This document shows positions 1,292 to 58,799 of a stretch of 64,000 nucleotides of DNA, piece after piece; position 1 is the first letter of the stretch; every line of letters begins with the position of its first letter. The DNA is taken from the NCBI GenBank assembly GCA_035530515.1, contig DATKUO010000139.1, forward strand, positions 1,917 to 65,916, given 5' to 3'. The DNA is from Bacteroidales bacterium. GTDB taxonomy: Bacteria; Bacteroidota; Bacteroidia; Bacteroidales; VadinHA17. Position numbers and translations under genes: made by a program. The notes beneath the pieces were generated by a model. That model saw only the letters and a list, made by a program, of their open reading frames with translations, did no database searches and had not been told where the DNA came from.

Positions 1292-2869
1292 TCAATGCAT
1301 AACCTCTCTGGTCTCCTCCAGATATAATCCATCCCTCGATAACAGGTGATCAAGATTGGCCAGTCCGTAAACAACAACCGCTGTAACTATTGAAGTATGA
1401 TTCTGGTATTCAGGGATACTCTTGTTATACATGTCACGCTCTGTATGCCATATTTCGCCATAGTTAAAATCGTACCCTTTCGTATCTGCAGTTCCAAAGC
1501 TGATTGCCGGAATCCCATTTTTCGCAAAATAAGCATGATCTGAGCCACCAGCTGATAGAGGTCTTGGTCTGGGAGGTGTTGTTCGTTTTTTAAGAGTAAA
1601 CGGGAAGTCGGGATTGATGCTGTTAAGGGGCTCGCAAACCTTTTCAAAATCATCGTACATAGCTTCAGGAACCGTAAGACTGTTAGCTACAGTTGGGCCA
1701 CCATCGCGGTTGAAATAATTAGATATTTTATCCCATCTGTTTTCATTCCTCTTAACCCAACTCTTCGACCCCCAGAGCCCAAACTCTTCACCTGCCCATA
1801 GACAAACGAGGATAGTACGTTTAGGCTTCCCGCCTGCAGCCATTATCAGACGTGCAGCTTCCATTGTAGGAGTAACTCCTGAACCATCATCAACACCACC
1901 GGTTGCAACATCAAATGCATCGAGATGACCACCCATCATAACATACTCATCCGGATACTTTGTTCCTCTGATAACTCCTATTACATTATGATATTTTACA
2001 GGGCCCATCTTAAAATGGTTTCTTATATCAAATTCCAGCAGAAAATACCTACGCTCCTTAACCATCTGCTCAATAATCTTGTATTGCCTTTCATCAAGCT
2101 TTATGTCAGGCACTGTAGGGAGAGACTCAAAAGTCATCTTCTCGACATTTTTTCTGTCATATAAAACCCTTATAGGCACAGATGCAGACTGAATGATTCC
2201 CAGTATTCCTGCCTCGCACATCTGCTTATAAAAAAGAGCCGGCTCCTCCTTTAAAGGTGTTGTTTCTTTGGGCTCCTGGTCAGGGTTACTTCTGTTCTCC
2301 CTCACGATCTCCCTGTTGGCCTTAGCTATTTCTTCATTTTCAGCAATCACCTTTGCCCTGATTGAATCGCCTTTTAACGAATAATCAACAGGCCAGCCGG
2401 TATTTGTGCCACCAATAAGTACCCAAGCTCCTTTAAGGGCTCCTTTCATGCGATCAAAGTCGGTCTGGGTTAGAGGCTCCTTCAAAACATGACCTCTTTG
2501 TACCCCTTTCGTTCCTGATGTATATGAGGGAGTGGCAAAATGCAGGTCCATACCGTTTTCACTTAACATACGTCCAAACCATGGACCACGATTAAATCCC
2601 ACCGGTAAGGTCCCAACTTCATCCATCTGAACTTCAATTCCCCATTTTCTGAACTGTGAGGCGCACCATTCACCTGCATTTTCATATGCATCCGATCCTA
2701 TTAATCTCCCTCCAAAACGGTTGGTAAGAACATCCAGATGGTTCATGGTCTGATTATCTGTTTTCCCAATCTCGATAATTGTACTTATTACCTTACTCTG
2801 CTGTGCCGATAATGTTGAAAAACAAAAAATAAGAAGAAGTAAAATTGAGGTGTAGTAACTTTTTGCCAT
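1292..2869 (-). CDS. M28 family metallopeptidase (secreted aminopeptidase-like)
   Basis: 525-aa ORF with a signal peptide (LLLLIFCFSTLSAQ). Zn-ligand regions typical of M28 are present: GGHLDAFDVATGGVDDGSG and WAGEEFGLWGS. Confidence 0.8.
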   Translation of the reverse strand: MAKSYYTSILLLLIFCFSTLSAQQSKVISTIIEIGKTDNQTMNHLDVLTNRFGGRLIGSDAYENAGEWCASQFRKWGIEVQMDEVGTLPVGFNRGPWFGRMLSENGMDLHFATPSYTSGTKGVQRGHVLKEPLTQTDFDRMKGALKGAWVLIGGTNTGWPVDYSLKGDSIRAKVIAENEEIAKANREIVRENRSNPDQEPKETTPLKEEPALFYKQMCEAGILGIIQSASVPIRVLYDRKNVEKMTFESLPTVPDIKLDERQYKIIEQMVKERRYFLLEFDIRNHFKMGPVKYHNVIGVIRGTKYPDEYVMMGGHLDAFDVATGGVDDGSGVTPTMEAARLIMAAGGKPKRTILVCLWAGEEFGLWGSKSWVKRNENRWDKISNYFNRDGGPTVANSLTVPEAMYDDFEKVCEPLNSINPDFPFTLKKRTTPPRPRPLSAGGSDHAYFAKNGIPAISFGTADTKGYDFNYGEIWHTERDMYNKSIPEYQNHTSIVTAVVVYGLANLDHLLSRDGLYLEETREVMH

Positions 2870-2962
2870 TTTTTAGTGTGTTAAAATTTGCCTGACAGAT
2901 AATACAATTACAAGTTAAAAGCAAACTCTGAAGCGAGGATAAAATTCTTATTCCGGGTTTAA

Positions 2963-4198
2963 TCAAAATTGATAAATCGTACTCAGAAGGATTCTTAAAT
3001 TACTGACATTATTTGTGTTGGTAACCTTGCCACTGGTTTGCATTGTTCCATATGCTGCTGTTGTACTTTCAATTTCAGCTGCAAAAGTTAATCGCCCTTC
3101 CGTAAAAGTTACACGAGGAGAGACTCTGAACAAATGATCAATGTTATTTCCACGACCATATACAGCTCCAGTGATTTCTTCGCTGGCTCCAAGGTTTTTA
3201 CTAAAGCCTGTAAAGAGACCAAATGCTACTTTCTTCCCATTAGTGTTCATATCAGCCCAGAAATTAGCAGTATTCAAATTGGTATAGGTTTTAATCTGGC
3301 TAACAGAGTTTGTTCCGGAAACTGCATATCCTCCTATCATGACAAGGTCGCTTGCATTCTGACCATAGACTCCCATTACTGAGAGATTAACAGGACTCGT
3401 CTTAATTTTTACATTTGCATAAGCTGAAAAGCTGCCGATGGTTGCATCAGTTTCAAAATTTGCAGTTGTAACGAGCTCCGGTCTTAGTTTTTTATAATCA
3501 ACTCCTGCCCATCCTGTTATAACATCTCCCACCGGAATACGTGCCTGTAGATCAAAGCCAGGTAATCCGCTGTTGCGTAAATAACTGTTACTACTTCCAA
3601 AGGGACCTGAAGAGGTGAAATCACGTTGAGCGTATGCTGTAAGCAAGAGACTAATATCTCCAAGTTTCCTGGTAACTCTGACTTGCGGGTTTCGGCTGAA
3701 TGGAGTAAAGGGAGCCCCCGTATTAAAACTTAAGGTTAACGGATAGCTTTCAACAGGAAACATAGGATGCCAGTTCTGTCCAATAAGAAGTGAAGTATTG
3801 GACCAGTCCAGTTTAACAAAAGCATGCCGCAGTCTAAATCCATTAATATCGCTTTCGCTTGTGCCAAAAAATTCTGCCTCAATCCCTCCTGAAGTTTTTG
3901 CACCAAATGCATCTGGCCCACTAATAACTCCCTTAAGGCGTGTTTGAATATTAAGTATATGAAATTTTGGATTGTCATTTATATCATTCCCGGCTGCATC
4001 AAGAAGCACATTATCAGGGAAAAGGTAAAAATGTCCTTCCCTCAAACCATTTGCTGTACTTGATTGTCTCGTATCACGCAATATATCAGTCTTTACAAAA
4101 CCCGAAAATACAATCCCAAAATTCTGATCTTCCTTATTGTCCTGAGCACTAACTGATAAGGAAACAGCAAGTAAGAATACAATTACTAGTTTTTTCAT
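2963..4198 (-). CDS. outer-membrane beta-barrel protein (porin-like)
   Basis: 411-aa ORF with a signal peptide ending SVSAQ, alternating amphipathic strands throughout and a C-terminal aromatic residue (..STIYQF). No specific family could be recognised by eye. Confidence 0.6.
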   Translation of the reverse strand: MKKLVIVFLLAVSLSVSAQDNKEDQNFGIVFSGFVKTDILRDTRQSSTANGLREGHFYLFPDNVLLDAAGNDINDNPKFHILNIQTRLKGVISGPDAFGAKTSGGIEAEFFGTSESDINGFRLRHAFVKLDWSNTSLLIGQNWHPMFPVESYPLTLSFNTGAPFTPFSRNPQVRVTRKLGDISLLLTAYAQRDFTSSGPFGSSNSYLRNSGLPGFDLQARIPVGDVITGWAGVDYKKLRPELVTTANFETDATIGSFSAYANVKIKTSPVNLSVMGVYGQNASDLVMIGGYAVSGTNSVSQIKTYTNLNTANFWADMNTNGKKVAFGLFTGFSKNLGASEEITGAVYGRGNNIDHLFRVSPRVTFTEGRLTFAAEIESTTAAYGTMQTSGKVTNTNNVSNLRILLSTIYQF

Positions 4199-11468: not shown

Positions 11469-14078
11469 CTAGCCGCACTTTGACGATCCGCAGTCTTTAC
11501 AAATAAGACAACCTTCCTCATAAACCAGGTTCTCCGAACCACATTCACCACATTTGCCTTTTGCCTTTGTTCCGTTTGGAATATACTTTTTCAATGCTCT
11601 CTCCACACCATTCTTCCAATTGTTAATTGACTCACTATCAAGCCTGAGAGATATTATAAGGTTAACTACGTCTGATATTGGCATCTCATGTCTCAACACA
11701 CCTGAAATAAGTTTTGCATAATTCCAGAACTCAGGTTTGAACATGTGAGACAATCCTCCCATTGTTTTCTTATAACCATACTTATCGGTATACTGAAAAT
11801 CGTAACGAGTCTTGCCGTCCTCATCCCTGTTTTTAATAATTTTACCTTTGATTATGCTTTTCGGGATAGGGAATATCTCCTCATCGGCTATACCGGTGAA
11901 TATTTCATAAGGCCGGCTCTCTTTTAACCCGACAAAAGCTACCCACCTTTCTTCATTAATATTAAACCTTATCACATCACAATCAAGAACTTTAGGACGT
12001 TTTGGTTTTTCAGGACGTATATCACTCTTGCCAGCTATAAGAACCCCGTTTCTTGATCCATCGCGATAAACCGTCGCTCCTTTGCATCCCGATTTCCATG
12101 CAGTAAGATAGAGCTCGCTAACCAGCTCTTCTTTCGCATCTGCAGGCAGATTAATTGTAACGCTGATTGAATGGTCGACCCATTTCTGTATCGCGCCCTG
12201 CATCTTCACCTTGGCTATCCAGTCAACATCGTTAGCAGTTGCTTTAAAATAAGGCGATTCCTCAATTATCGATTCAATCTCCTCGTCTCCCATCCGGGTA
12301 ACCTCATCGGTGTCGTATCCGTTCAGTTTAAGCCAATCAATGAACTTATGGTGGAACACATTAAACTCTTCCCATGAATCTCCAACTTCATCATGGAATG
12401 TGATCTTTACATCTTTATCATTAGGATTAACCTTTCTTCTTCTTTTATAGAAAGTTGAAAAGACAGGTTCAATTCCGGAAGTTGTCTGGGTCATAAGACT
12501 TGTTGTTCCTGTTGGCGCTATTGTAAGCAGGGCAATGTTTCTGCGACCAAACTTAACCATGTTATTATACATAACCGGATCTGCCTCTTTCATTCTTAAT
12601 ATGAAAGGGTTATTTTTTTCACGCTCTGCATCATAAATTGCAAAGGCTCCTCGCTCTTTTGCCAGGTAGGTAGATGACTTATATGTTTCCAGGGCAAGGG
12701 TTTTATGAACTTCAACTGAAAAATTTGTAGCATCGTCGCTACCATATCTTAATCCGAGTGCTGCAAGCATATCTCCCTCAGCTGTTATGCCTATTCCTGT
12801 TCTTCTTCCTTCCTCAGCTTTTTTTCTGATATTCGTCCAGAGGTTCCTTTCAACAAGTTTCAATTCTTCAAGCTCAGGATCTCCATTTATTTTTGCAAGA
12901 ATTACATCGATCTTTTCCAGTTCAAGATCAATGATGTCATCCATCATACGTTGTGCCAAACCTGCGTGCTCTTTATACAATTCAAAGTCAAATTCAGACT
13001 TATCGGTAAAAGGATTATTTACATAACTGAACAGGTTTAGTGCCAGAAGCCGGCAGCTGTCGTAGGGGCATAAAGGTATCTCTCCACACGGATTTGTTGA
13101 GACAGTTTCATATCCCAGATCAGCATAGCAATCGGGAACGCTCTCTTTAATTATAGTATCCCAGAATAATACTCCAGGTTCCGCTGATTTCCAGGCATTA
13201 TGGATTATCTTGGTCCATAGCTGCACTGCAATGATGTCTTTTGCAAACTTAGGGTTATCTGATTTAATCGGATATTGTTGTCTGAAAAGTGTTTTTTCTT
13301 CCACTGCTTTCATGAAATCATCGGTAAGCTTAACAGACACATTTGCACCTGTAACCTTTCCGCTTTCAAGTTTGGCATCAATAAACTTCCCAGAATCGGG
13401 GTGCTTGATAGATATTGACAGCATGAGCGCTCCTCTTCTGCCATCCTGCGCTACTTCGCGAGTTGAGTTTGAATATCTCTCCATAAAGGGGACTACGCCT
13501 GTTGAGGTGAGAGCGCTGTTAAAAACAGGTGTCCCTTTTGGCCGGATATGCGATAGGTCGTGGCCAACTCCTCCACGTCGCTTCATAAGCTGAACCTGTT
13601 CCTGATCAATCTTCATAATACCCCCGTAGGAGTCCGAAGTTCCATCATTACCTATAACAAAACAATTCGACAATGAAGCTATTTGGTGGTCATTACCAAT
13701 ACCTGTCATTGGTCCGCCCTGCGGAACAATATATTTGAAATTTTTCAATACACTGTAGATAAGCTCTTCCGATAACGGATTTGGATATTTCTTTTCAATC
13801 CTGTGTATCTCACGGGCCAGCCTGTGATGCATATCGTCAGGTGTTTTTTCAAACAGGTTTCCAAATGAATCTTTCAGTGCATATTTGTTTGTCCACACCC
13901 TTGCTGCCAGTTCATCTCCATTGAAGTACTGTATGCTTTCCTCTACTGCTTCTTCGTGAGTAAAAACAGATTTTTTGATATTACCCCCTTCAACTGTTTT
14001 CTGCATTTCTGGTACTGATTGCTTTTTTATTGCCTTTTCAGTTGCAATAGCTGGTTCCTGGACAAATAATTCTTCCAT
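11469..14078 (-). CDS. nrdJ: adenosylcobalamin-dependent (class II) ribonucleoside-diphosphate/triphosphate reductase
   Basis: 869-aa ORF with an RNR barrel active-site region (STNPCGEIPLCPYDSCRLLALNL) and no class I R2 partner nearby. The C-terminal Cys-rich tail CGECGSENLVYEEGCLICKDCGSSKCG matches the zinc-finger tail known for many class II RNRs. Confidence 0.85.
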   Translation of the reverse strand: MEELFVQEPAIATEKAIKKQSVPEMQKTVEGGNIKKSVFTHEEAVEESIQYFNGDELAARVWTNKYALKDSFGNLFEKTPDDMHHRLAREIHRIEKKYPNPLSEELIYSVLKNFKYIVPQGGPMTGIGNDHQIASLSNCFVIGNDGTSDSYGGIMKIDQEQVQLMKRRGGVGHDLSHIRPKGTPVFNSALTSTGVVPFMERYSNSTREVAQDGRRGALMLSISIKHPDSGKFIDAKLESGKVTGANVSVKLTDDFMKAVEEKTLFRQQYPIKSDNPKFAKDIIAVQLWTKIIHNAWKSAEPGVLFWDTIIKESVPDCYADLGYETVSTNPCGEIPLCPYDSCRLLALNLFSYVNNPFTDKSEFDFELYKEHAGLAQRMMDDIIDLELEKIDVILAKINGDPELEELKLVERNLWTNIRKKAEEGRRTGIGITAEGDMLAALGLRYGSDDATNFSVEVHKTLALETYKSSTYLAKERGAFAIYDAEREKNNPFILRMKEADPVMYNNMVKFGRRNIALLTIAPTGTTSLMTQTTSGIEPVFSTFYKRRRKVNPNDKDVKITFHDEVGDSWEEFNVFHHKFIDWLKLNGYDTDEVTRMGDEEIESIIEESPYFKATANDVDWIAKVKMQGAIQKWVDHSISVTINLPADAKEELVSELYLTAWKSGCKGATVYRDGSRNGVLIAGKSDIRPEKPKRPKVLDCDVIRFNINEERWVAFVGLKESRPYEIFTGIADEEIFPIPKSIIKGKIIKNRDEDGKTRYDFQYTDKYGYKKTMGGLSHMFKPEFWNYAKLISGVLRHEMPISDVVNLIISLRLDSESINNWKNGVERALKKYIPNGTKAKGKCGECGSENLVYEEGCLICKDCGSSKCG

Positions 14079-14455: not shown

Positions 14456-14565
14456 TTTCCTGTTTTCAGCGTTGCAACACCCTAATTTTAATTCTAAATT
14501 GATATCGTTTGTTATTCCCAAAAAACTTGTTTGTCAATATAATTAATTTCAATTATTTAATGTAA

Positions 14566-14756
14566 ATATTCCGGTGCGCTGCACCTCTATCCTTTACGAC
14601 AAACATTTATCTACAAATATTATTGTGCGCTGCACCTTTTGGCCTGTGCTACAATCAAGTCGTTGCAAATATAATGGTGCTCCGCACCTTTTGGTCTGTA
14701 CTACAATCAAGTCGTTTAAATATAATGGTGCTCCGCACCTTTTGGCGCCACCAAAA
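14566..14756. repeat. REP-like array: four tandem ~51-bp units, each with a GGTGC-NNN-GCACC hairpin
   Basis: The hairpins are GGTGCGCTGCACC at 14573-14585, (T)GTGCGCTGCAC(C) at 14625-14635, and GGTGCTCCGCACC at 14676-14688 and 14727-14739. Units 2-4 share ..AATATAATGGTGCTCCGCACCTTTTGGYCTGTRCTACAATCAAGTCGTT. The array ends in the palindrome TTTTGGCGCCACCAAAA (14740-14756). Confidence 0.85.
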
Positions 14757-14809
14757 TCATTTACATACAAATAGTTCGGTCATCTATACCTTTTATGGCA
14801 TAACACTAT

Positions 14810-14881: not shown

Positions 14882-15361
14882 TTAATCCCCTCCATAAATA
14901 TCACTAAAAAATTCAAACAGGTATTCCTGGTTAAATTCAACATTGTTCTTTTCAAGCATTTCCAAATACTCTTCTTTGAATCGCTTTTTTTTGTGATGTT
15001 CTTTCTGAGTTAAAATATATTTCACCACAGTGTCAACTTGGGACCGGGAATGGGTAAAAGCCCCGTAACCTTTTTGCCATTCAAATCTAAATTTAGATAA
15101 CCTTTCCCCTTTTATCCATGAATTAGATGATGTTTTAATTTCTTCTACCAGATCCGGGATCAGTTGATTCACATTATATCCGATTAAGAAATGAATATGG
15201 TCGGGCATTGCACCTATTGCCAGCATTTTATGCCGATGATTTTGGACAATTCCTGTAATATACATCTCCAATTCATCTTTCCATTCTTTTTTTATTAAGG
15301 CATCGCGGTTTTTCACTGCAAATACCAAATGAAAATAACATTGAGTATAAGTGTTTGCCAT
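14882..15361 (-). CDS. IS200/IS605-like HUH Y1 transposase homologue, RAYT-like (REP-associated tyrosine transposase)
   Basis: 159-aa ORF with the HUH motif in MPDHIHFLIGY, the WQKGYGAF motif, and the catalytic-Tyr helix VVKYILTQKEHHKK. There is no tnpB or second ORF. REP-type hairpins flank it on both sides. Confidence 0.8.
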   Translation of the reverse strand: MANTYTQCYFHLVFAVKNRDALIKKEWKDELEMYITGIVQNHRHKMLAIGAMPDHIHFLIGYNVNQLIPDLVEEIKTSSNSWIKGERLSKFRFEWQKGYGAFTHSRSQVDTVVKYILTQKEHHKKKRFKEEYLEMLEKNNVEFNQEYLFEFFSDIYGGD

Positions 15362-19064: not shown

Positions 19065-20312
19065 TTAGATCTGCTTGTTAATATCTTTGTGAAGAATTTC
19101 TTGCAGAATACTGGTGGTAGCTCCGGTATTTTTACTTATGTAATCAGCTACCGTTTTAGCTGATTTTAAGTATAATGGCTCATTTGTTAACCATTCATCA
19201 AGTATATGTGAAAATATTTTGAACGAATCGTAAGTCATTGCCCCTTTTTCATTAATTAAATCCATCGCTTCCCCGAATTTTTTATGCTCCGGACCAAACA
19301 TTACAGGTATTCCCCAACAGGCCGGTTCAAGTATATTATGGATACCTTTTCCAAACCCCCCCCCTATTGCAGCTATATAAGCATACTTATATGCTGACGA
19401 AAGCATTCCAATATTATCAATTATCAAAACTCTTGAGTCAGCAGTAGCTTCACTGAATTCAGAAAACCTGACTGTACCGACCTTGAAAAGTTTTTCAAGT
19501 CTTTCGATATTTGGTTTATCAATTTCATGTGGAGCGAAGACCCATTTCATTCTGTCTGGGAACTTATTAATATATTGAGCAATTATCTCCTCATCCTGTT
19601 TCCAGCTGCTACCGACCAGAAACAATTTCTCGTTACCACGGAACTGTGCAATCTGAGTAATATCCCTGGCTGTTTCAGCAATCTGAACAACCCTGTCAAA
19701 ACGGGTATCGCCTGCAAGTATAATATTTTCAATATCAATACCTGAAAGCAACTCGAGCGACGGCCTATCCTGGACAAAAATTATCCTGAACTTCTTCAGC
19801 ATAACCCTGAAAAATGATCCGTACCATCGGAAAAAATGTTGATCGGCTCTGAATATTGCCGAAATCAGATATAATGGTATATTATTATAATAAAGTGCTG
19901 AAATATAATTGTTCCAGAATTCATACTTGACAAAAATGACAAATTCCGGATTTATAAGCCTTACGAACTTTGAAGCATGTCCCGGAGTATCGGAAGGAAG
20001 ATATATAATGCTGTCTGCATGAGGATAATTTTTTCTTATCTCATATCCTGACGGAGAAAAAAAAGTAAGCACAATCTTTAATTCCGGAATCTTCTCTTTA
20101 ATAGCCTCAATTACAGGCCTTCCCTGTTCAAACTCACCGAGGGAGGCACAATGAATCCATATAGTACGGTCGCCTGGTTTTATATTATCTCTGATTTTTT
20201 CTGCCCATTTTTTTCGTCCTTTGATCAATAATGAAACTTTTGAATTAAATGGAGATACCAAATAGGTAAGAGCGGTAAAAACATATATTCCTATATTGTA
20301 TAAAAATTTCAT
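19065..20312 (-). CDS. waaA: 3-deoxy-D-manno-octulosonic acid (Kdo) transferase
   Basis: 415-aa ORF with the hallmark N-terminal region IWIHCASLGEFEQGRPVIEAIKEK and a GT-B C-terminal half. Length fits KdtA/WaaA. Confidence 0.9.
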   Translation of the reverse strand: MKFLYNIGIYVFTALTYLVSPFNSKVSLLIKGRKKWAEKIRDNIKPGDRTIWIHCASLGEFEQGRPVIEAIKEKIPELKIVLTFFSPSGYEIRKNYPHADSIIYLPSDTPGHASKFVRLINPEFVIFVKYEFWNNYISALYYNNIPLYLISAIFRADQHFFRWYGSFFRVMLKKFRIIFVQDRPSLELLSGIDIENIILAGDTRFDRVVQIAETARDITQIAQFRGNEKLFLVGSSWKQDEEIIAQYINKFPDRMKWVFAPHEIDKPNIERLEKLFKVGTVRFSEFSEATADSRVLIIDNIGMLSSAYKYAYIAAIGGGFGKGIHNILEPACWGIPVMFGPEHKKFGEAMDLINEKGAMTYDSFKIFSHILDEWLTNEPLYLKSAKTVADYISKNTGATTSILQEILHKDINKQI

Positions 20313-20346
20313 ATAATATGATTTGAGGTCTCAAAGGTAATAAAAA

Positions 20347-20474
20347 GGCACAACGGCACAATGGCATAACGGCATAACGGTGTAACGGTGTAACGGCATA
20401 ACGGCATAACGGCATAACGGCATAACGGCGTAAAGGCGTAAAGGCGTAAGAGTTCAACGGCACAAGGGTGTAAT
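20347..20474. repeat. tandem array of 16 degenerate 8-mers (GGCATAAC family)
   Basis: Read directly from the sequence: ggcacaac ggcacaat ggcataac x2 ggtgtaac x2 ggcataac x4 ggcgtaaa x2 ggcgtaag agttcaac ggcacaag ggtgtaat. Translation of this array produces the spurious ORF 20245-20463 (PLCRYAVTPLHRYAV..). Confidence 0.95.
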
Positions 20475-20496
20475 GGATATTTTGGATCAGGACAGT

Positions 20497-20853
20497 TTAT
20501 AAGGAACTTCTGGCTTTTATAAGTTTGGTAAGCATAACAGATATAATTTTACAATCATTTATTAGCTCCTCAGATTTGAGATTGCTGATATATCCAATTT
20601 CCTGTCCAATTATTATTTGCGTTAATAATTCAGCAGTAGATCCTTTCGCAATATAAAAGTGTCGCACATATTGTTTATCTGTATCAAGTTCATCCCCTTC
20701 AGATATATTTGAAGGAATACTAATAGCAGATCTTTGAATCTGATCTTTAAAACCATAATCTTTTGATAATACACTCGTCCGTGTTAGCTTATAGATTTTT
20801 ACAGCTAATTCTTTGGCCAGTTGCCAAACCCGAAGTTTTTGAAAGTCTCCCAT
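20497..20853 (-). CDS. four-helix-bundle protein (23S rRNA intervening-sequence protein / Avd family)
   Basis: 118-aa ORF. MGDFQKLRVWQLAKELAVKIYKLT...IQRSAISIPSNISEG...FYIAKGSTAELLTQIIIG matches the conserved pattern of TIGR02436/PF05635 proteins (L.VWQ.A..L...iY.lt, ..r.a.SIpsNIaEG, A.GS..El.tql..a). Confidence 0.85.
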   Translation of the reverse strand: MGDFQKLRVWQLAKELAVKIYKLTRTSVLSKDYGFKDQIQRSAISIPSNISEGDELDTDKQYVRHFYIAKGSTAELLTQIIIGQEIGYISNLKSEELINDCKIISVMLTKLIKARSSL

Positions 20854-20957
20854 TTTGCAGCGATTTAATATTTATAATATGTTCCTACCAAAAGTAATTC
20901 CACTTACTCTGTGTATTATTCAAATCTAAATAATAATCTTGAATTAATCATTTTTTA

Positions 20958-21048
20958 ACCGTAATTTGCTACTACCGTTATGCCTTTGCGCCGTTGTACC
21001 GCTGTGCCGTTGCACCGTTACGCCGTTGCGCCGTTACTCCATTACGCC
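20958..21048. repeat. tandem array of ~9-11 degenerate 8-mers (CCGTTATG family), reverse complement of the 20347-20474 units
   Basis: From 20975 the units read ccgttatg cctttgcg ccgttgta ccgctgtg ccgttgca ccgttacg ccgttgcg ccgttact ccattacg cc. Two more degenerate units precede them from 20958. CATAACGG, the phase-shifted left-array unit, is the reverse complement of CCGTTATG. Confidence 0.9.
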
Positions 21049-21118
21049 TCATTTTATTGATAAGAGTCAGGGTAATAGAAAATATCTCCTATTTTTGTAC
21101 TATAATACCTGATCGGTT

Positions 21119-22072
21119 ATGGTAAGACTAATTGCCCTTATTCTCTCTATCATTCTGCAGATAATTGCTGCATCTATTGCATTGAGATTTATGAAACTGA
21201 CAAAATACAGGCTCTCATGGATATTGCTCTCTCTCTCTTTTGTATTTATGGCTGTCCGTAAAATCATTCAGCTTTCTGAATATGTCCGTGGTACACCTTC
21301 CTATACATGGCAGATGATAGATGAATGGACTGGAGTTCTTGTTTCAGTTATGATTATCGGAGGAGTAGTCCTTATCCGCGAATTATTCTCTTCTCTCAAA
21401 AGGGCTGAAACTGATCGTTTACGTTCAGAAAAAAGAGTAATAAATGCAATTATAAACACCGAGGAGAATGAGAGAAAAAGATTTGCAAAAGATCTGCACG
21501 ACGGACTCGGTCCCATCCTGTCAACTGTAAAAATGTCTCTCTCGGCACTTAATACAAGAATCAAAGATGCTTCAGGAAAAGTTATCCTTAATAATACAAA
21601 CCACCTGGTAAATGAAGCTATCAGTACAATTAAAGATATCTCAAATAATCTGAGTCCTCATGTATTGTCGAATTTTGGCCTTGCCAGCGCTATAAGCGCT
21701 TTTACTTCTAAAATCAATCAGACTAAGGCTGTTAAAATTGATTTTAAATCAAATATGGAAAGCCAAAGGCTTGAAAACGAGAAAGAAGTTGTTATTTATC
21801 GAGCTGTTTGTGAGCTTATTAATAATTCAATACTTCACTCTGGTGCATCAAGGATTGAGATAGATTTAAACAAACACGAAAAATTTGTTACCTTGCAGTT
21901 TTATGATAATGGACGCGGTTTTGATACATCCACACTAAGCAAAGAAGATACAAAAGGTATGGGATTATCTAACATTGAGACACGTGTTAAAACAGAAGAA
22001 GGCGTTTTTATTCTTGAATCTACTCCGGGGAAAGGAACCAGCGCTCTTATCAAAATGATTGATTCTTATTAA
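21119..22072 (+). CDS. sensor histidine kinase (HisKA_3 / NarX-DegS type) with N-terminal membrane domain
   Basis: 317-aa ORF with about 3 N-terminal TM segments. The H-box is RKRFAKDLHDGLGPIL, and the HATPase_c motifs are NNSILHSGA, FYDNGRGFD and GMGLSNIETR. Confidence 0.85.
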   Translation: MVRLIALILSIILQIIAASIALRFMKLTKYRLSWILLSLSFVFMAVRKIIQLSEYVRGTPSYTWQMIDEWTGVLVSVMIIGGVVLIRELFSSLKRAETDRLRSEKRVINAIINTEENERKRFAKDLHDGLGPILSTVKMSLSALNTRIKDASGKVILNNTNHLVNEAISTIKDISNNLSPHVLSNFGLASAISAFTSKINQTKAVKIDFKSNMESQRLENEKEVVIYRAVCELINNSILHSGASRIEIDLNKHEKFVTLQFYDNGRGFDTSTLSKEDTKGMGLSNIETRVKTEEGVFILESTPGKGTSALIKMIDSY

Positions 22073-22088
22073 TCAGGAATTATTAATA

Positions 22089-22730
22089 ATGGGAAAAATA
22101 GGGATAATTATAGCAGACGATCACCAGCTGTTTCGTAACGGATTAAAAATATTACTTAATGCATTTCCCGAATTTGAGGTGACAGGTGAAGCATCAAACG
22201 GAGTTGAGTTTCTTAAAATATTGAAAAATACTGAAGCGGATATTGCTCTTATGGATATCAATATGCCTGAGATGGATGGGATAGAAGCTACCAGACAAGG
22301 ACTGAAAATTAATCAGGAAATTAAGATTATAGCTCTCTCTATGTATGGTGAGGAAGAATACTATTACAAAATGGTTGATGCCGGTGCAAAAGGATTCCTT
22401 CTGAAAGATTCTGATATTTCTGAAGTAAAAGAAGCAATTATTACTATTAATAAAGGTGGAAGTTATTTTTCACAGGAGTTGCTTTATCATGTAATTCAAA
22501 AGTTCAAGCACAGAGAGCATGAAAATAAATCAGCCAATCTGTCAAAAAGAGAGAAAGAGATCCTGTTTAAAATATGTGAAGGTCTTTCCAATCAGGAAAT
22601 TGCCAACACATTATTTATCAGCAAAAGAACTGTAGATAAGCACAGGGCAAATCTCCTTGGTAAAACAAACTCCAAAAACACCGCCAGCCTCATATTATTT
22701 GCCATTCGAAATAAGCTTATTGAGATATAA
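22089..22730 (+). CDS. response regulator, NarL/LuxR family
   Basis: The receiver domain has IIIADDH and ALMDINMPEMDG. The C-terminal LuxR HTH is LSKREKEILFKICEGLSNQEIANTLFISKRTVDKHR. I prefer the Met at 22089 over the track start at 22059. Confidence 0.9.
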   Translation: MGKIGIIIADDHQLFRNGLKILLNAFPEFEVTGEASNGVEFLKILKNTEADIALMDINMPEMDGIEATRQGLKINQEIKIIALSMYGEEEYYYKMVDAGAKGFLLKDSDISEVKEAIITINKGGSYFSQELLYHVIQKFKHREHENKSANLSKREKEILFKICEGLSNQEIANTLFISKRTVDKHRANLLGKTNSKNTASLILFAIRNKLIEI

Positions 22731-22747
22731 AAACAGATATATATAAA

Positions 22748-22797
22748 GTTGAAAAGGTTGAAGGAGTTGAAGGGTTGAAGGAGTTGAAGGGGTTGAA
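22748..22797. repeat. tandem 8-9-mer array (GTTGAAGG family), 6 units
   Basis: The units read gttgaaaag gttgaagga gttgaagg gttgaagga gttgaaggg gttgaa. Confidence 0.9.
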
Positions 22798-22824
22798 TAA
22801 CAGATATTAATATATTTCAAAAAT

Positions 22825-22887
22825 AACTCCAGGTACTCCAGGCTCTTTAGGCACTTTAGGCACTTTAGGCACTCCAGGCACTTTAAT
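22825..22887. repeat. tandem 9-mer array (CACTTTAGG / CACTCCAGG family), 7 units
   Basis: The units read aactccagg tactccagg ctctttagg cactttagg cactttagg cactccagg cactttaat. The array is followed by the small palindrome CTAAAGACTTTAG at 22897-22909. It is not complementary to the neighbouring GTTGAAGG array. Confidence 0.9.
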
Positions 22888-22916: not shown

Positions 22917-23282
22917 ATGGCTGAATCACATGACTTAGGTAAAAAAGGTGAAGATCTGGCTGTTAATCATCTTAAAGAATCAGGGTTTAAGATACTTTTC
23001 CGAAACTGGAAATGGGGAAAACATGAAATTGATATCATTGCTGAAAATAAGGATGTTATCGTTTTTGTGGAGGTAAAAACACGTACTGACGACTTTCAGA
23101 TGCATCCTGTAACGGCTGTTACCAATGAAAAACAAAAATCTATAATATGGGCCGCCGACGGCTACTTAAAAAAATTTAATGTTGATAAAGAAAGTCGCTT
23201 TGACGTTATAACTATAATTAAAAGTGGGGAATCGTACCAGATTGATCATATTGAGGGTGCCTTCTACCCCACTCTTAGATAA
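22917..23282 (+). CDS. YraN family (UPF0102) predicted endonuclease
   Basis: 121-aa ORF. GKKGEDLAVNHLKESGFKILFRNWK...EIDIIAENKDVIVFVEVKTR matches the YraN/UPF0102 PD-(D/E)xK-like pattern. Confidence 0.8.
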   Translation: MAESHDLGKKGEDLAVNHLKESGFKILFRNWKWGKHEIDIIAENKDVIVFVEVKTRTDDFQMHPVTAVTNEKQKSIIWAADGYLKKFNVDKESRFDVITIIKSGESYQIDHIEGAFYPTLR

Positions 23283-23758: not shown

Positions 23759-24859
23759 ATGAAAATCCGTTTCATCCTGGCAGTCATTATCTCTTTGATA
23801 ATATTGCCTTCATATGCTCAGAAAAAAACTGTTGCCACTCCTAAAGAAACTCAGGAGGAATACAAATTTACACCGGTAGTGGAACTCAAAGCTACTCCTG
23901 TTAAAAATCAGGCAGGGACAGGAACCTGCTGGTGCTTTGCAACCACATCATTCATTGAGTCTGAACTACTCAGGATGGGCAAAGGGGAGTATGATCTTTC
24001 AGAAATGTTTATTGTAAGACAAAATTATATTGATAAACTGAAGGATAACTACTTAAGGCAGGGAAAAGGTAATATTAATGAAGGCGGTCTCTCTCACGAC
24101 TGGATGAGGGTTTTCACTGAATCGGGGATTGTCCCCGATGAGGTCTATAGTGGCCTTAATTACGGATCACCAACACATAACCATAGTGAGCTGCAAAATT
24201 TTATCCACGCAGTCGCTGATGTTCCTGTTCAGCGAAAAAAGGAGAGTCCTCAATATCATGAAATTGTTAATGCAGTCTTGGATTCGTACCTTGGTAAGGT
24301 ACCCGACTCGTTTGAATATAAAGGTGTAAATTATACACCAAAATCATTTGCCGACAGCCTGGGTATTAATCCTGCCAATTATGTCGAGATTACATCTTTC
24401 GCTCATTTCCCTTTCTATACACTGGGACTACTGGAAATACCTGATAACTGGACAATGGAACGATTCTATAATGTGCCTCTAGATGAACTTATAGAGATAA
24501 TGGATTACTCACTAAATAATGGATATACAGTTAACTGGGATGGCGATGTAAGCGAAAAGGAATTCTCACACTCCAGGGGTGTTGCTGATTTTCCTGAATC
24601 AAATGTTAGCCAGCAGATGCGACAGGAAGGGTATGAAAGTTTTACAACTACCGATGACCACCTGATGCATCTTACAGGAATTGTGAAAGACCAGAACGGC
24701 ATGAAATATTATATAACTAAAAACTCATGGGGAACCGAAAGAAATCCTTTTGGCGGATATCTGAATATGTCAGAAAACTATGTCCGTGCTAAAACCCTAT
24801 TTATTATGGTTAATAAAAACGCTATTCCTGCTGAGATAAAAACAAAATTGGGATTATAG
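23759..24859 (+). CDS. C1 family cysteine peptidase (aminopeptidase C / bleomycin hydrolase-like), secreted
   Basis: 366-aa ORF with a signal peptide ending PSYAQ. The catalytic-Cys region is NQAGTGTCWCFATTSFIES and the downstream His region is HLMHLTGIV..KNSWG. Confidence 0.75.
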   Translation: MKIRFILAVIISLIILPSYAQKKTVATPKETQEEYKFTPVVELKATPVKNQAGTGTCWCFATTSFIESELLRMGKGEYDLSEMFIVRQNYIDKLKDNYLRQGKGNINEGGLSHDWMRVFTESGIVPDEVYSGLNYGSPTHNHSELQNFIHAVADVPVQRKKESPQYHEIVNAVLDSYLGKVPDSFEYKGVNYTPKSFADSLGINPANYVEITSFAHFPFYTLGLLEIPDNWTMERFYNVPLDELIEIMDYSLNNGYTVNWDGDVSEKEFSHSRGVADFPESNVSQQMRQEGYESFTTTDDHLMHLTGIVKDQNGMKYYITKNSWGTERNPFGGYLNMSENYVRAKTLFIMVNKNAIPAEIKTKLGL

Positions 24860-24863
24860 TATT

Positions 24864-24920
24864 GTCTTGCAGGTCTTATATGACTGTTCGACTTGCATGA
24901 CTTGCACGGCTTGCACGACT
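24864..24920. repeat. tandem 9-mer array (GACTTGCAY family), about 6-7 units
   Basis: The units read gtcttgcag gtcttatat gactgttc gacttgcat gacttgcac ggcttgcac gact. The array fills the whole spacer between two convergent genes. Confidence 0.85.
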
Positions 24921-58712: not shown

Positions 58713-58759
58713 ACAACTAAGAAATCATTAACCCGGCTTGAACCCCTCGTGCAATTGGG

Positions 58760-58799
58760 CCGTTATGCCTTTGTGCCGTTGCGCCATTGCGCCTTCTTA
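58760..58799. repeat. solo 5-unit octamer array of the CCGTTATG family
   Basis: The units read ccgttatg cctttgtg ccgttgcg ccattgcg ccttctta. The first 22 nt differ at one position from 20975-20996 (ccgttatgcctttgcgccgttg). The last unit contains the PBP1A stop codon. Confidence 0.85.

Follow-up and report, generated by a model that had tools for sequence, protein, structure and literature searches.

A stretch of 64,000 nucleotides from a Bacteroidales metagenome-assembled genome (assembly GCA_035530515.1, contig DATKUO010000139.1, positions 1,917 to 65,916; hereafter the window, whose own numbering is used throughout) contains a small gene of a four-helix-bundle family, set between two arrays of degenerate octamers that run towards each other. 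The locus raises the question of whether the gene and its arrays form one system or whether the gene merely resides within repeats that belong to the host. Analysis of related genes indicates that the locus very probably belongs to a coherent and widespread class, in which such a gene is accompanied by cognate convergent arrays and of which the intervening sequences of ribosomal RNA (rRNA) are a special case. The element consists of three parts:

20347-20474, minus strand: 3′ arm of 16 head-to-tail units, GTTRYRCC on the sense strand of the gene (C-rich), which is GGCRYAAC on the plus strand
20497-20853, minus strand: four-helix-bundle gene, 118 aa, matching the profiles PF05635, TIGR02436 and NF008912
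20958-21048, minus strand: 5′ arm of about 11 octamers of the GGYRYAAC type, G-rich on the sense strand of the gene

This layout of array, open reading frame (ORF) and inverted array had been described in an original prediction made from the sequence, and the sequence, Tandem Repeats Finder (TRF) and the protein profiles agree on it. TRF reports a period of 8 with 12.9 copies and 90% matches over 20347-20449, and arrays of period 8, 16 and 24 over 20973-21048. The units of the 3′ arm include GGCACAAC, GGCACAAT, GGCATAAC, GGTGTAAC and GGCGTAAA, with GAGTTCAA as the single irregular unit, while the two innermost units of the 5′ arm are degenerate. The stop codon of the gene lies 22 nt from the 3′ arm.

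Association of the gene family with inverted arrays

A scan of one genome per species provided 80 loci (designated here by L numbers) with 85 homologous genes, from relatives that are 35-59% identical. The groups sampled include the Clostridia, Acidobacteriota, Pseudomonadota, Desulfobacterota, Planctomycetota, Verrucomicrobiota, Bacteroidota, candidate phyla and others. Arrays of 7-9-nt units, as called by TRF within 200 bp, flank 44 of the 85 homologs on both sides and a further 30 on one side, with 11 showing neither; the corresponding counts for 216 control ORFs are 6, 49 and 161 (Fisher p 1e-22). All 11 TRF-negative genes were found by eye to be bordered by degenerate inverted arrays. Within 300 bp of the genes there are 137 short-period arrays, compared to 117 in the remaining sequence, which is six-fold larger. 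The original prediction regarded the element as a single isolated one. It is instead one instance of a very widespread class, and the enrichment of arrays around four-helix-bundle genes elsewhere, on which that prediction was made to depend, is evident in these counts. A period of 7 predominates (77 of 131 arrays), with a period of 8 in 30.

The two arms of a pair are related in both sequence and polarity. Among arm pairs of the same period, the units are at least 85% complementary in 30 of 36, as against 5.8% of random pairings. The 5′ arm has a GC skew of +0.42, being G- and purine-rich, and the C-rich 3′ arm a skew of −0.38 (p 5e-15). The G-rich arm comes first in 23 gene-bearing pairs and the C-rich arm in 4, with short gene-less pairs divided 9 to 0. 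A long-gap pair around a gene of a second subfamily (in L016, from the Melioribacteraceae) is also G-first, which brings the total to 33 against 4 for the 37 skewed pairs. The arms in the window are likewise convergent, with the G-rich strand pointing inward. As an inverted repeat reads G-first on both strands, this polarity belongs to the arms themselves and is independent of how the gene is oriented. The G-first order may allow a transcript entering from either side to avoid exposing a long, unpaired C-rich stretch for the loading of Rho.

The sarcin-ricin loop motif of 23S rRNA occurs in none of 189 loci. No sampled copy is therefore located in 23S rRNA, and the name “23S rRNA intervening sequence protein” describes a rare location. 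No further gene family was found between such arrays, the exceptions being a second four-helix-bundle gene and a single small ORF of the GIY-YIG type. This last ORF, a GIY-YIG-like sequence of 102 aa (MPWLYILKCSDDSYYTGST...; family assigned by eye), lies between short 7-mer arrays at 2697-3233 of a locus from the Syntrophaceae (L020).

Two side observations concern the arrays themselves. In Vibrio salinus (L017, 3913-4411) the gene is flanked by 9.7 perfect copies of TCAGTTA, with four copies of ACTGAAAC downstream. TCAGTTA is the reverse complement of TAACTGA, and TAACTGA repeats have been reported as abundant in the Beggiatoaceae. Three short contigs with an identical gene (L002, L003 and L004) have ends inside the 3′ array, which suggests that the arrays break short-read assemblies; many homologs obtained by protein search reside on contigs of 1-2 kb.

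Unit type and gene lineage

Homologs that are 74-87% identical to the window protein are all flanked by GGCNCAAN arrays, in GGCGCAAC-, GGCGCAAG- or GGCACAGC-type versions. Their genomic contexts are unrelated to one another: rbfA/trpS, epimerase/ileS, lptFG/START, DUF5107/AP-endonuclease, Por-tail genes and a PAS kinase. The same unit logo, GGCNCAAN, is obtained from 218 units of both arms, of which 110 belong to the 5′ arm; positions 4 and 8 are nearly free and the others conserved. This unit is kept among copies whose synonymous divergence (dS) is saturated, where neutral sequence would be randomized, and it is thus either constrained or continually regenerated. The combination of fixed and free positions fits recognition of a sequence better than mere pairing.

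A match between unit and subfamily is also seen across phyla. The first gene of L016 is 48% identical to the window protein and has GGTACAAA-type units, while the second gene of this locus is flanked by GACTAAGA and is 60% identical to an ORF of L097, a relative of the window organism, in which arrays of the GACTAAG type surround the second-subfamily ORF. The second subfamily thus has GACTAAGN arrays in two phyla. Similarly, L038 (Desulfosarcina) and L069 (Nitrospirae) encode proteins that are 63% identical and have CAAGGGTT-type units in common. The arrays are best read as part of the element and not of the host site, and as travelling with the gene subfamily across contexts and phyla. Their length is variable: where an identical protein was recovered from different samples, the 5′ arm has 14-20 units and the 3′ arm 9-16, a variation that fits slippage.

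The encoded protein

The family identity given in the original prediction holds at the level of all three profiles. The window protein matches PF05635 with an E-value of 6.4e-33 (113.6 bits, cut-off 33.8), TIGR02436 with 8.3e-33 (112.9 bits, cut-off 24) and NF008912 with 135.3 bits (cut-off 124). The published family motif is GxxRxxxSxxxNxxE (PMC3936711). In the window protein, QRSAISIPSNISEG carries R40, S44, N48 and E51 (R-x3-S-x3-N-x2-E), which are invariant in the family alignment, while the leading G of the motif is missing at that spacing. An AlphaFold2 model (predicted local distance difference test, pLDDT, 90.1) has four long helices. Foldseek aligns it to 2GSC (XCC0516) and 2RLD (BT_0352) with template modelling (TM) scores of 0.83-0.88 and a root-mean-square deviation of 1.4-2.3, and to Avd, the accessory protein of diversity-generating retroelements (DGRs), with TM scores of 0.78-0.80 (4DWL and 8UB7). 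Sequence identity is 34% to XCC0516 and 11% to Avd. The entries 2GSC and 2RLD contain five chains apiece.

Compared with its homologs, the window protein has a ratio of nonsynonymous to synonymous divergence (dN/dS) of 0.04-0.15 with dS of 0.8-3, indicative of strong purifying selection with saturated synonymous sites. A PADLOC search of the protein gave no match, and PHROGs returned a single weak family of unknown function. Only one distant relative was found in viral contigs, which argues that the element is not phage-borne. The family is large: a search started from one sequence extended to 13,288 clusters at 50% identity. One member of 1445 aa (P0387) has ten separate stretches that match the four-helix-bundle query, and is possibly a tandem fusion of bundles.

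The orthologous kinase/kdtA site

The element was predicted to lie between kdtA and a two-component operon, and the profile matches of the neighbouring genes agree. In Bacteroidota, TAnnTTTG is the consensus of the −7 promoter element, and boxes of this type were identified when 20 orthologous intergenic regions were aligned by eye. The features that define the site are as follows:

19065-20312, minus strand: Kdo transferase gene kdtA (PF04413), profile match
20332-20339, minus strand: TACCTTTG, putative −7-type box of kdtA, just outside the 3′ arm and conserved in empty and filled orthologous sites
21090-21097, plus strand: TATTTTTG, putative −7-type box of the histidine-kinase operon
21119-22730, plus strand: HisKA_3 kinase and LuxR-type response regulator, profile matches

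In 80 metagenomic loci the kinase-kdtA arrangement is kept, with kdtA 67-81% identical. The window gene is present in none of these 80 orthologous intergenic regions, and in at least three of them (L118, L126 and L158) the site is empty and measures 68-71 bp. The presence/absence polymorphism that the original prediction called for at this site is therefore found. The insertion site has CAAAAATAGGAG as its conserved left junction and TTTTTATTACCTTTG as its conserved right junction, and the empty junction of L118 and L126 reads ...ACAAAAATAGGAGT/TTTTATTACCTTTGG... (the slash marks the junction). Both conserved junctions hold outward-facing boxes of the TAnnTTTG type, which are read as putative divergent promoters of the kinase operon and of kdtA. 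A comparison of the empty L118 and L126 (AGGAGT/TTTTATTACC) with filled sites shows T/A-rich junctions, whose sequence is as compatible with a short target-site duplication as with its absence.

Most other relatives have gene-less hairpins at this exact point, with the G-rich arm on the kinase side and the C-rich arm against TTTTTATTACCTTTG. The unit types at the orthologous site include GGCRCAAC, GGACTAAG, TAAAGCCTC and GGTTCAGC. A GAAGAT-like motif recurs after the G-arm (by eye). Elsewhere in the 80 kdtA loci, double units of the GGCRYAAC type are merely isolated 16-mers with 2 mismatches. In L097 and L098, a second-subfamily gene between GACTAAG arrays occupies the kinase/kdtA site, and these arrays sit nested within remnants of GGCRYAAC arms; other loops contain unrelated palindromes. 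Nested GACTCAC or GACTAAG arrays, or perfect palindromes such as GTAGAATCGCAATGCATTGCGATTCTAC in L100, were noted in the loops of L086, L089, L100, L097, L099 and L127, with the older remnants outermost. Given that newer arrays are nested, the centres of the hairpins seem to be entry points for new material.

Arm pairing and leader anatomy

The two arms of the window element are 71-82% complementary over their longer pairs (35-75 nt), in several registers. When the order of units in one arm was shuffled, the alignment score was 42.8 ± 2.9 in comparison with the observed 44 (z 0.43). The complementarity is at the level of the unit only and not base for base, as the original prediction had stated. 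A weak unit-by-unit correspondence of the arms is present in L165 and L166 (z about 2.5), as opposed to the z of 0.43 in the window. When 20330-21070 is folded, a long terminal stem is predicted for both strands, with pairing well above shuffled controls (z −6.9 for the minus and −10.6 for the plus strand). The hairpins are bordered by A-runs and T-runs, as in bidirectional terminators.

Two further features lie between the 5′ arm and the start codon:

20921-20928, minus strand: TAGATTTG, TAnnTTTG-type −7 box of a putative internal promoter, lying past the 5′ arm and ahead of the ORF, as read from the sequence
20890-20910, minus strand: putative small hairpin of the leader (AGAGTAA-GTGGAAT-TACTTTT), after which the conserved AAATCGCTGCAAA stands directly before the ATG

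Equivalent boxes (TATATTTG, TATCTTTG, TATTTTTG and TATATTTA) are found between the 5′ arm and the ATG in L165, L173, L175, L177, L179, L181 and L186, and the TAGATTTG-type box of the leader is a candidate promoter. The loop of the leader hairpin is GTGGAAT or GTGCTAA in close homologs. The GTGGAAT loop occurs with other stem sequences in L165 (CAAAGCAG...TGCTTTG) and L175 (GTCGGACAG...TGTCTGAC), and the AAATCGCTGCAAA-ATG segment is kept in most close homologs. Since the promoter-like box is situated between the 5′ arm and the ORF, the gene’s own transcript probably lacks the 5′ arm, and pairing of the arms as RNA would then need read-through from outside. In the window subfamily, the own transcript would carry the C-rich 3′ array alone. 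In many other lineages the 5′ array stops 9-14 nt upstream of the start codon; this spacing, together with copies inside operons, makes it probable that both arms are co-transcribed there.

Related repeats and neighbouring genes in the window

The double-unit pattern GGCRYAACGGYRYAAC was scanned over the window with up to 2 mismatches allowed and 100 shuffles as the control. It has 25 matches, against 0.07 expected, a number reached by 0 of the 100 shuffles. These comprise 13 in the left arm (plus strand), 8 in the right arm (minus strand) and 4 in a solo array:

58754-58793, minus strand: solo array of 5 GGCRYAAC-family units, ORF-less, in an 84-bp gap between the convergent radA and a PBP1a-like gene

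The solo array suggests that the GGCRYAAC type of unit is dispersed in the genome. In total, the window has three arrays of this type, all built of octamers, as opposed to the heptamers of repeats of the short tandemly repeated repetitive (STRR) type. As the units run head-to-tail without spacers, a CRISPR array was rejected. Rfam has no match in 19900-21400 at E-values up to 1, and none across the window at the gathering score. Within approximately 5 kb of the element lie genes for a TonB-dependent receptor, kdtA, the kinase, the response regulator, UPF0102, YjbR and a C1 peptidase.

Repeats of other kinds are also present in the window. At 14560-14796 a module of about 52 nt is repeated 4-5 times, and most of the copies contain a short GC hairpin (GGTGCGCTGCACC or GGTGCTCCGCACC) with TTTT after it. 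The copies occupy an 800-bp gap between the ORFs at 11469-14078 and 14882-15361, both on the minus strand, and have no match in Rfam. At 22747-22885, five copies of GTTGAAGGR and six of CTYYAGGCA, separated by an AT-rich spacer of 33 nt, lie directly upstream of the YraN/UPF0102 gene (22917-23282). These two arrays are not mutually complementary and are of types distinct from GGCRYAAC. A solo array of GACTTGCAY (3.6 copies, 24889-24920) resides in the short gap between a C1 peptidase gene and a convergent ORF, which end at 24859 and 24925, respectively.

Comparison with known systems

The intervening sequences in the rRNA of Leptospira and Coxiella burnetii resemble the window element in that terminal inverted repeats form a stem whose loop contains an S23p/PF05635 ORF. 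The element in the 23S rRNA gene of Coxiella has a 28-bp terminal stem and, upstream of the ORF, 2-3 tandem GACAGAT heptamers that vary between strains, with cleavage by RNase III at the first repeat (PMC4990558). The 28-bp stem corresponds to four heptamers, and array length is variable there as it is in elements of the window type. However, the window copy is not inserted in a 23S rRNA gene at helix 25 or 45 but lies between putative divergent promoters, and it has long arms (11 and 16 octamers) and a promoter-like box of its own. The Coxiella ORF has been reported as decaying, whereas the window protein is under purifying selection. The likeness to an rRNA intervening sequence that was seen in the original prediction, a stem with an ORF in its loop, is upheld by the stem and heptamers of Coxiella.

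Dispersed heptamers form a second point of comparison. These include GGGAATC in Xanthomonas, the STRR repeats of cyanobacteria (GGGGATT) and possibly TAACTGA in the Beggiatoaceae. They are short intergenic tandem units of variable copy number, often in convergent pairs with the G-rich strand inward. The GGGAATC repeats of Xanthomonas occur at 186 sites, with 70 convergent inverted pairs, and form quadruplexes; no link to mobile elements was found, and the four-helix-bundle gene is unmentioned (PMC4692102). Generally, the papers on these heptamers treat the repeats as G-quadruplex-forming or regulatory and do not mention the gene, and the window unit differs in being 8 nt long and without runs of the G-quadruplex type. 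The X. campestris ortholog of XCC0516 (L187, 1424-1872) lies between GGGAATC (4.4 copies) and CCCATTC (4.3 copies) in the accB-accC gap. The products of accB and accC, the operon that is interrupted by this gene with its GGGAATC arms, act together.

A third parallel is offered by the transposase genes associated with repetitive extragenic palindromic (REP) sequences, termed RAYTs, and their REP doublets, the REPINs. In that system too, a single small gene lies between inverted short repeats that are also dispersed as gene-less inverted doublets, each gene lineage has its own type of repeat, and the system is inherited over long periods, mostly vertically. The RAYT is a Y1/HUH transposase and its repeats are single palindromes of about 25 nt, whereas the present elements have tandem arrays of 7-9-nt units and an all-helical, Avd-like PF05635 bundle, which is not known to be catalytic.

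Avd, with which the window protein shares its fold, has been described as a barrel of five subunits; within the ribonucleoprotein of the DGR it binds a defined RNA element. The window locus differs from a DGR in the lack of a reverse transcriptase and of template and variable repeats, in the low identity to Avd and in its genomic architecture. Type III toxin-antitoxin systems such as ToxIN are comparable in that tandem nucleotide repeats adjoin a small protein gene, with possible recognition of the repeat RNA by the protein. The ToxI units are about 36 nt long, in contrast to the 7-9 nt seen here, and the present elements have inverted arrays on both sides, no endoribonuclease fold and no PADLOC match.

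Genes of the PF05635 family have been found inserted in cas loci (PMC3936711, PMC10910872). In the literature that was covered, which did not extend to subscription journals, there was no general statement placing PF05635 genes between inverted oligomer arrays; the nearest precedent is the Coxiella paper, which notes heptamers in one element (PMC4990558).

Proposed mechanism and alternative explanations

The favoured reading is that of an ancient cassette, composed of an Avd-like, pentamer-forming PF05635 gene with its own promoter, nested between convergent, lineage-specific arrays of 7-9-nt units. The copy number of the arrays would shift rapidly through slippage. The arrays can be regarded with moderate confidence as cis elements recognised by the encoded pentamer, which may bind the repeated unit as RNA or single-stranded DNA, with roughly one unit per subunit. 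Cognate binding could then maintain or spread the arrays and the gene, for example if the loop were copied by gene conversion into dispersed same-type arrays, a spread resembling that of a RAYT gene and its REPINs. Such recombination would need no transposase and would fit the cognate pattern. In read-through transcripts of the host, the arms may pair and so insulate or excise the cassette. Taken in full, with the recognition of the repeats by the pentamer included, this reading is about as likely to be right as to be wrong.

A number of results weigh against it. The sample was seeded with the motif SIPSNI[SA]EG, and hence it speaks for a large PF05635 subfamily and not for the Avd proteins of DGRs. 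Unit similarity tracks protein identity only above approximately 60%, where the match could also reflect shared descent; the overall Spearman coefficient is 0.03, a value reached by 82 of 300 permutations. Genes are far fewer than gene-less arrays, and for several unit types of the window there is no cognate gene within its 64 kb. The copies are separated by dS of 0.8-3, and no recent transposition was caught. At the kinase/kdtA site, the gene-less hairpin loops have no detectable remnant of the window gene or its leader, homology being confined to the arrays and outer flanks, so that an origin of these hairpins by internal deletion is unsupported. Lastly, the gene of L177 and L178 (870-1810) lies between two complete gene-less hairpins and is consequently flanked by a C-arm and then a G-arm. 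The order at these two loci, which departs from the usual nesting, is G-arm, loop, C-arm, gene, G-arm, loop, C-arm, with the hairpins in direct orientation; the two loops are near-identical in L177 and diverged in L178.

In a first alternative, the arrays would be generic intergenic hairpins of the host, resembling terminators, insulators or REP sequences, in whose loops the gene merely lands or survives without a functional link. In its favour, arrays persist without the gene at the same site in most of the 80 relatives, solo arrays and non-complementary pairs of arrays occur, loops also house other palindromes and nested arrays, the A-run and T-run borders are those of bidirectional terminators, and one-sided arrays accompany 23% of control ORFs. 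This explanation is nonetheless unlikely, as it is at odds with a near-universal association with one protein family across phyla and with the near absence of other families from the loops, where a second four-helix-bundle gene and one GIY-YIG ORF are the only other genes found. Moreover, the unit type tracks the subfamily and not the host: the two paralogs of L016 differ in their units, and each resembles its closest homolog in another phylum. Comparably improbable is the proposal that the arms serve solely as a double-stranded RNA stem, cut by RNase III to excise a selfish cassette, with the repeats not recognised, the role of the protein unrelated and the tandem design merely making pairing tolerant of register shifts. 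It draws on the strong stems predicted for both strands, on the cleavage of the Coxiella element by RNase III at its first repeat (PMC4990558), on the many copies within operons (e.g., accB-accC in Xanthomonas and DUF5107/AP-endonuclease) and on the 5′ arrays of many diverse loci that end 9-14 nt before the start codon, where both arms are probably co-transcribed. It does not account for the conserved promoter-like box internal to the 5′ arm in the window subfamily, or for a site between divergent promoters, which is not expected to be transcribed from upstream. The window arms pair no better than they do after shuffling of the unit order. Furthermore, two of the eight positions in the unit are free, which produces mismatches at regular intervals, and the other six have a fixed sequence beyond what complementarity requires; on inspection, the mismatches between the arm consensus sequences have no G:U bias and are mostly purine-purine or A-C.

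The remaining two explanations are far less probable. An arrangement like that of a type III toxin-antitoxin system, with the C-rich 3′ array or both arms sequestering or regulating the protein, would agree with tandem repeats beside a small gene, with a 3′ array that starts about 22 nt past the stop codon and is thus on the gene’s own transcript, and with strong purifying selection on the protein. It is very improbable in view of units far below the length of the ToxI repeats, a protein with no nuclease fold or PADLOC match, and inverted arrays that lie on both sides and are also present without the gene. Least probable of all is a degenerate DGR, in which an orphan avd was left after the loss of the reverse transcriptase and of the template and variable repeats (TR/VR). 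The similarity in fold to Avd (TM 0.78-0.80 to 4DWL and 8UB7) and the position of PF05635 as the commonest Pfam family in DGR neighbourhoods point in this direction. The neighbours are housekeeping genes with no reverse transcriptase among them, the only direct repeats of at least 50 nt in the window are the 52-nt modules at 14591-14796 and one chance-like pair, identity to Avd is 11% as against 34% to XCC0516, and all sampled relatives have the array architecture and not the DGR layout. A DGR remnant is effectively excluded, with no reverse transcriptase nearby and no TR/VR pair in the window, in agreement with the original prediction.

Beyond the cassette reading set out above, a bolder extension is conceivable, although it is rather doubtful. 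The PF05635 pentamers outside DGRs would be the trans-acting partners of STRR-type heptamers and octamers, with each lineage recognising, maintaining and spreading its own unit as a non-nuclease symbiont similar to REPIN-RAYT, and the rRNA intervening sequences would be accidental insertions. In a more extreme version, synthesis of the arrays would proceed inward from a break in the middle of the hairpin, with the C-rich repeat RNA of the gene’s 3′ end as the template. Such inward synthesis would account both for the direction of the G-rich strand, which always points 5′ to 3′ to the centre as at telomeres, and for the nesting of newer types inside older ones.

Implications

If the gene and its arrays are one system, then the function of the ORF in rRNA intervening sequences and the origin of the 7-8-nt repeats would become a single question. 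Both puzzles are decades old, and tandem repeats of 7-8 nt are abundant in many bacteria, among them the cyanobacteria and xanthomonads. Such a question would be testable, as the structure of XCC0516 has been solved and a tractable organism is at hand. The elements are also located inside operons, as at accBC, and in cas loci, and this may explain why the family has been scored as CRISPR-associated in genome surveys.

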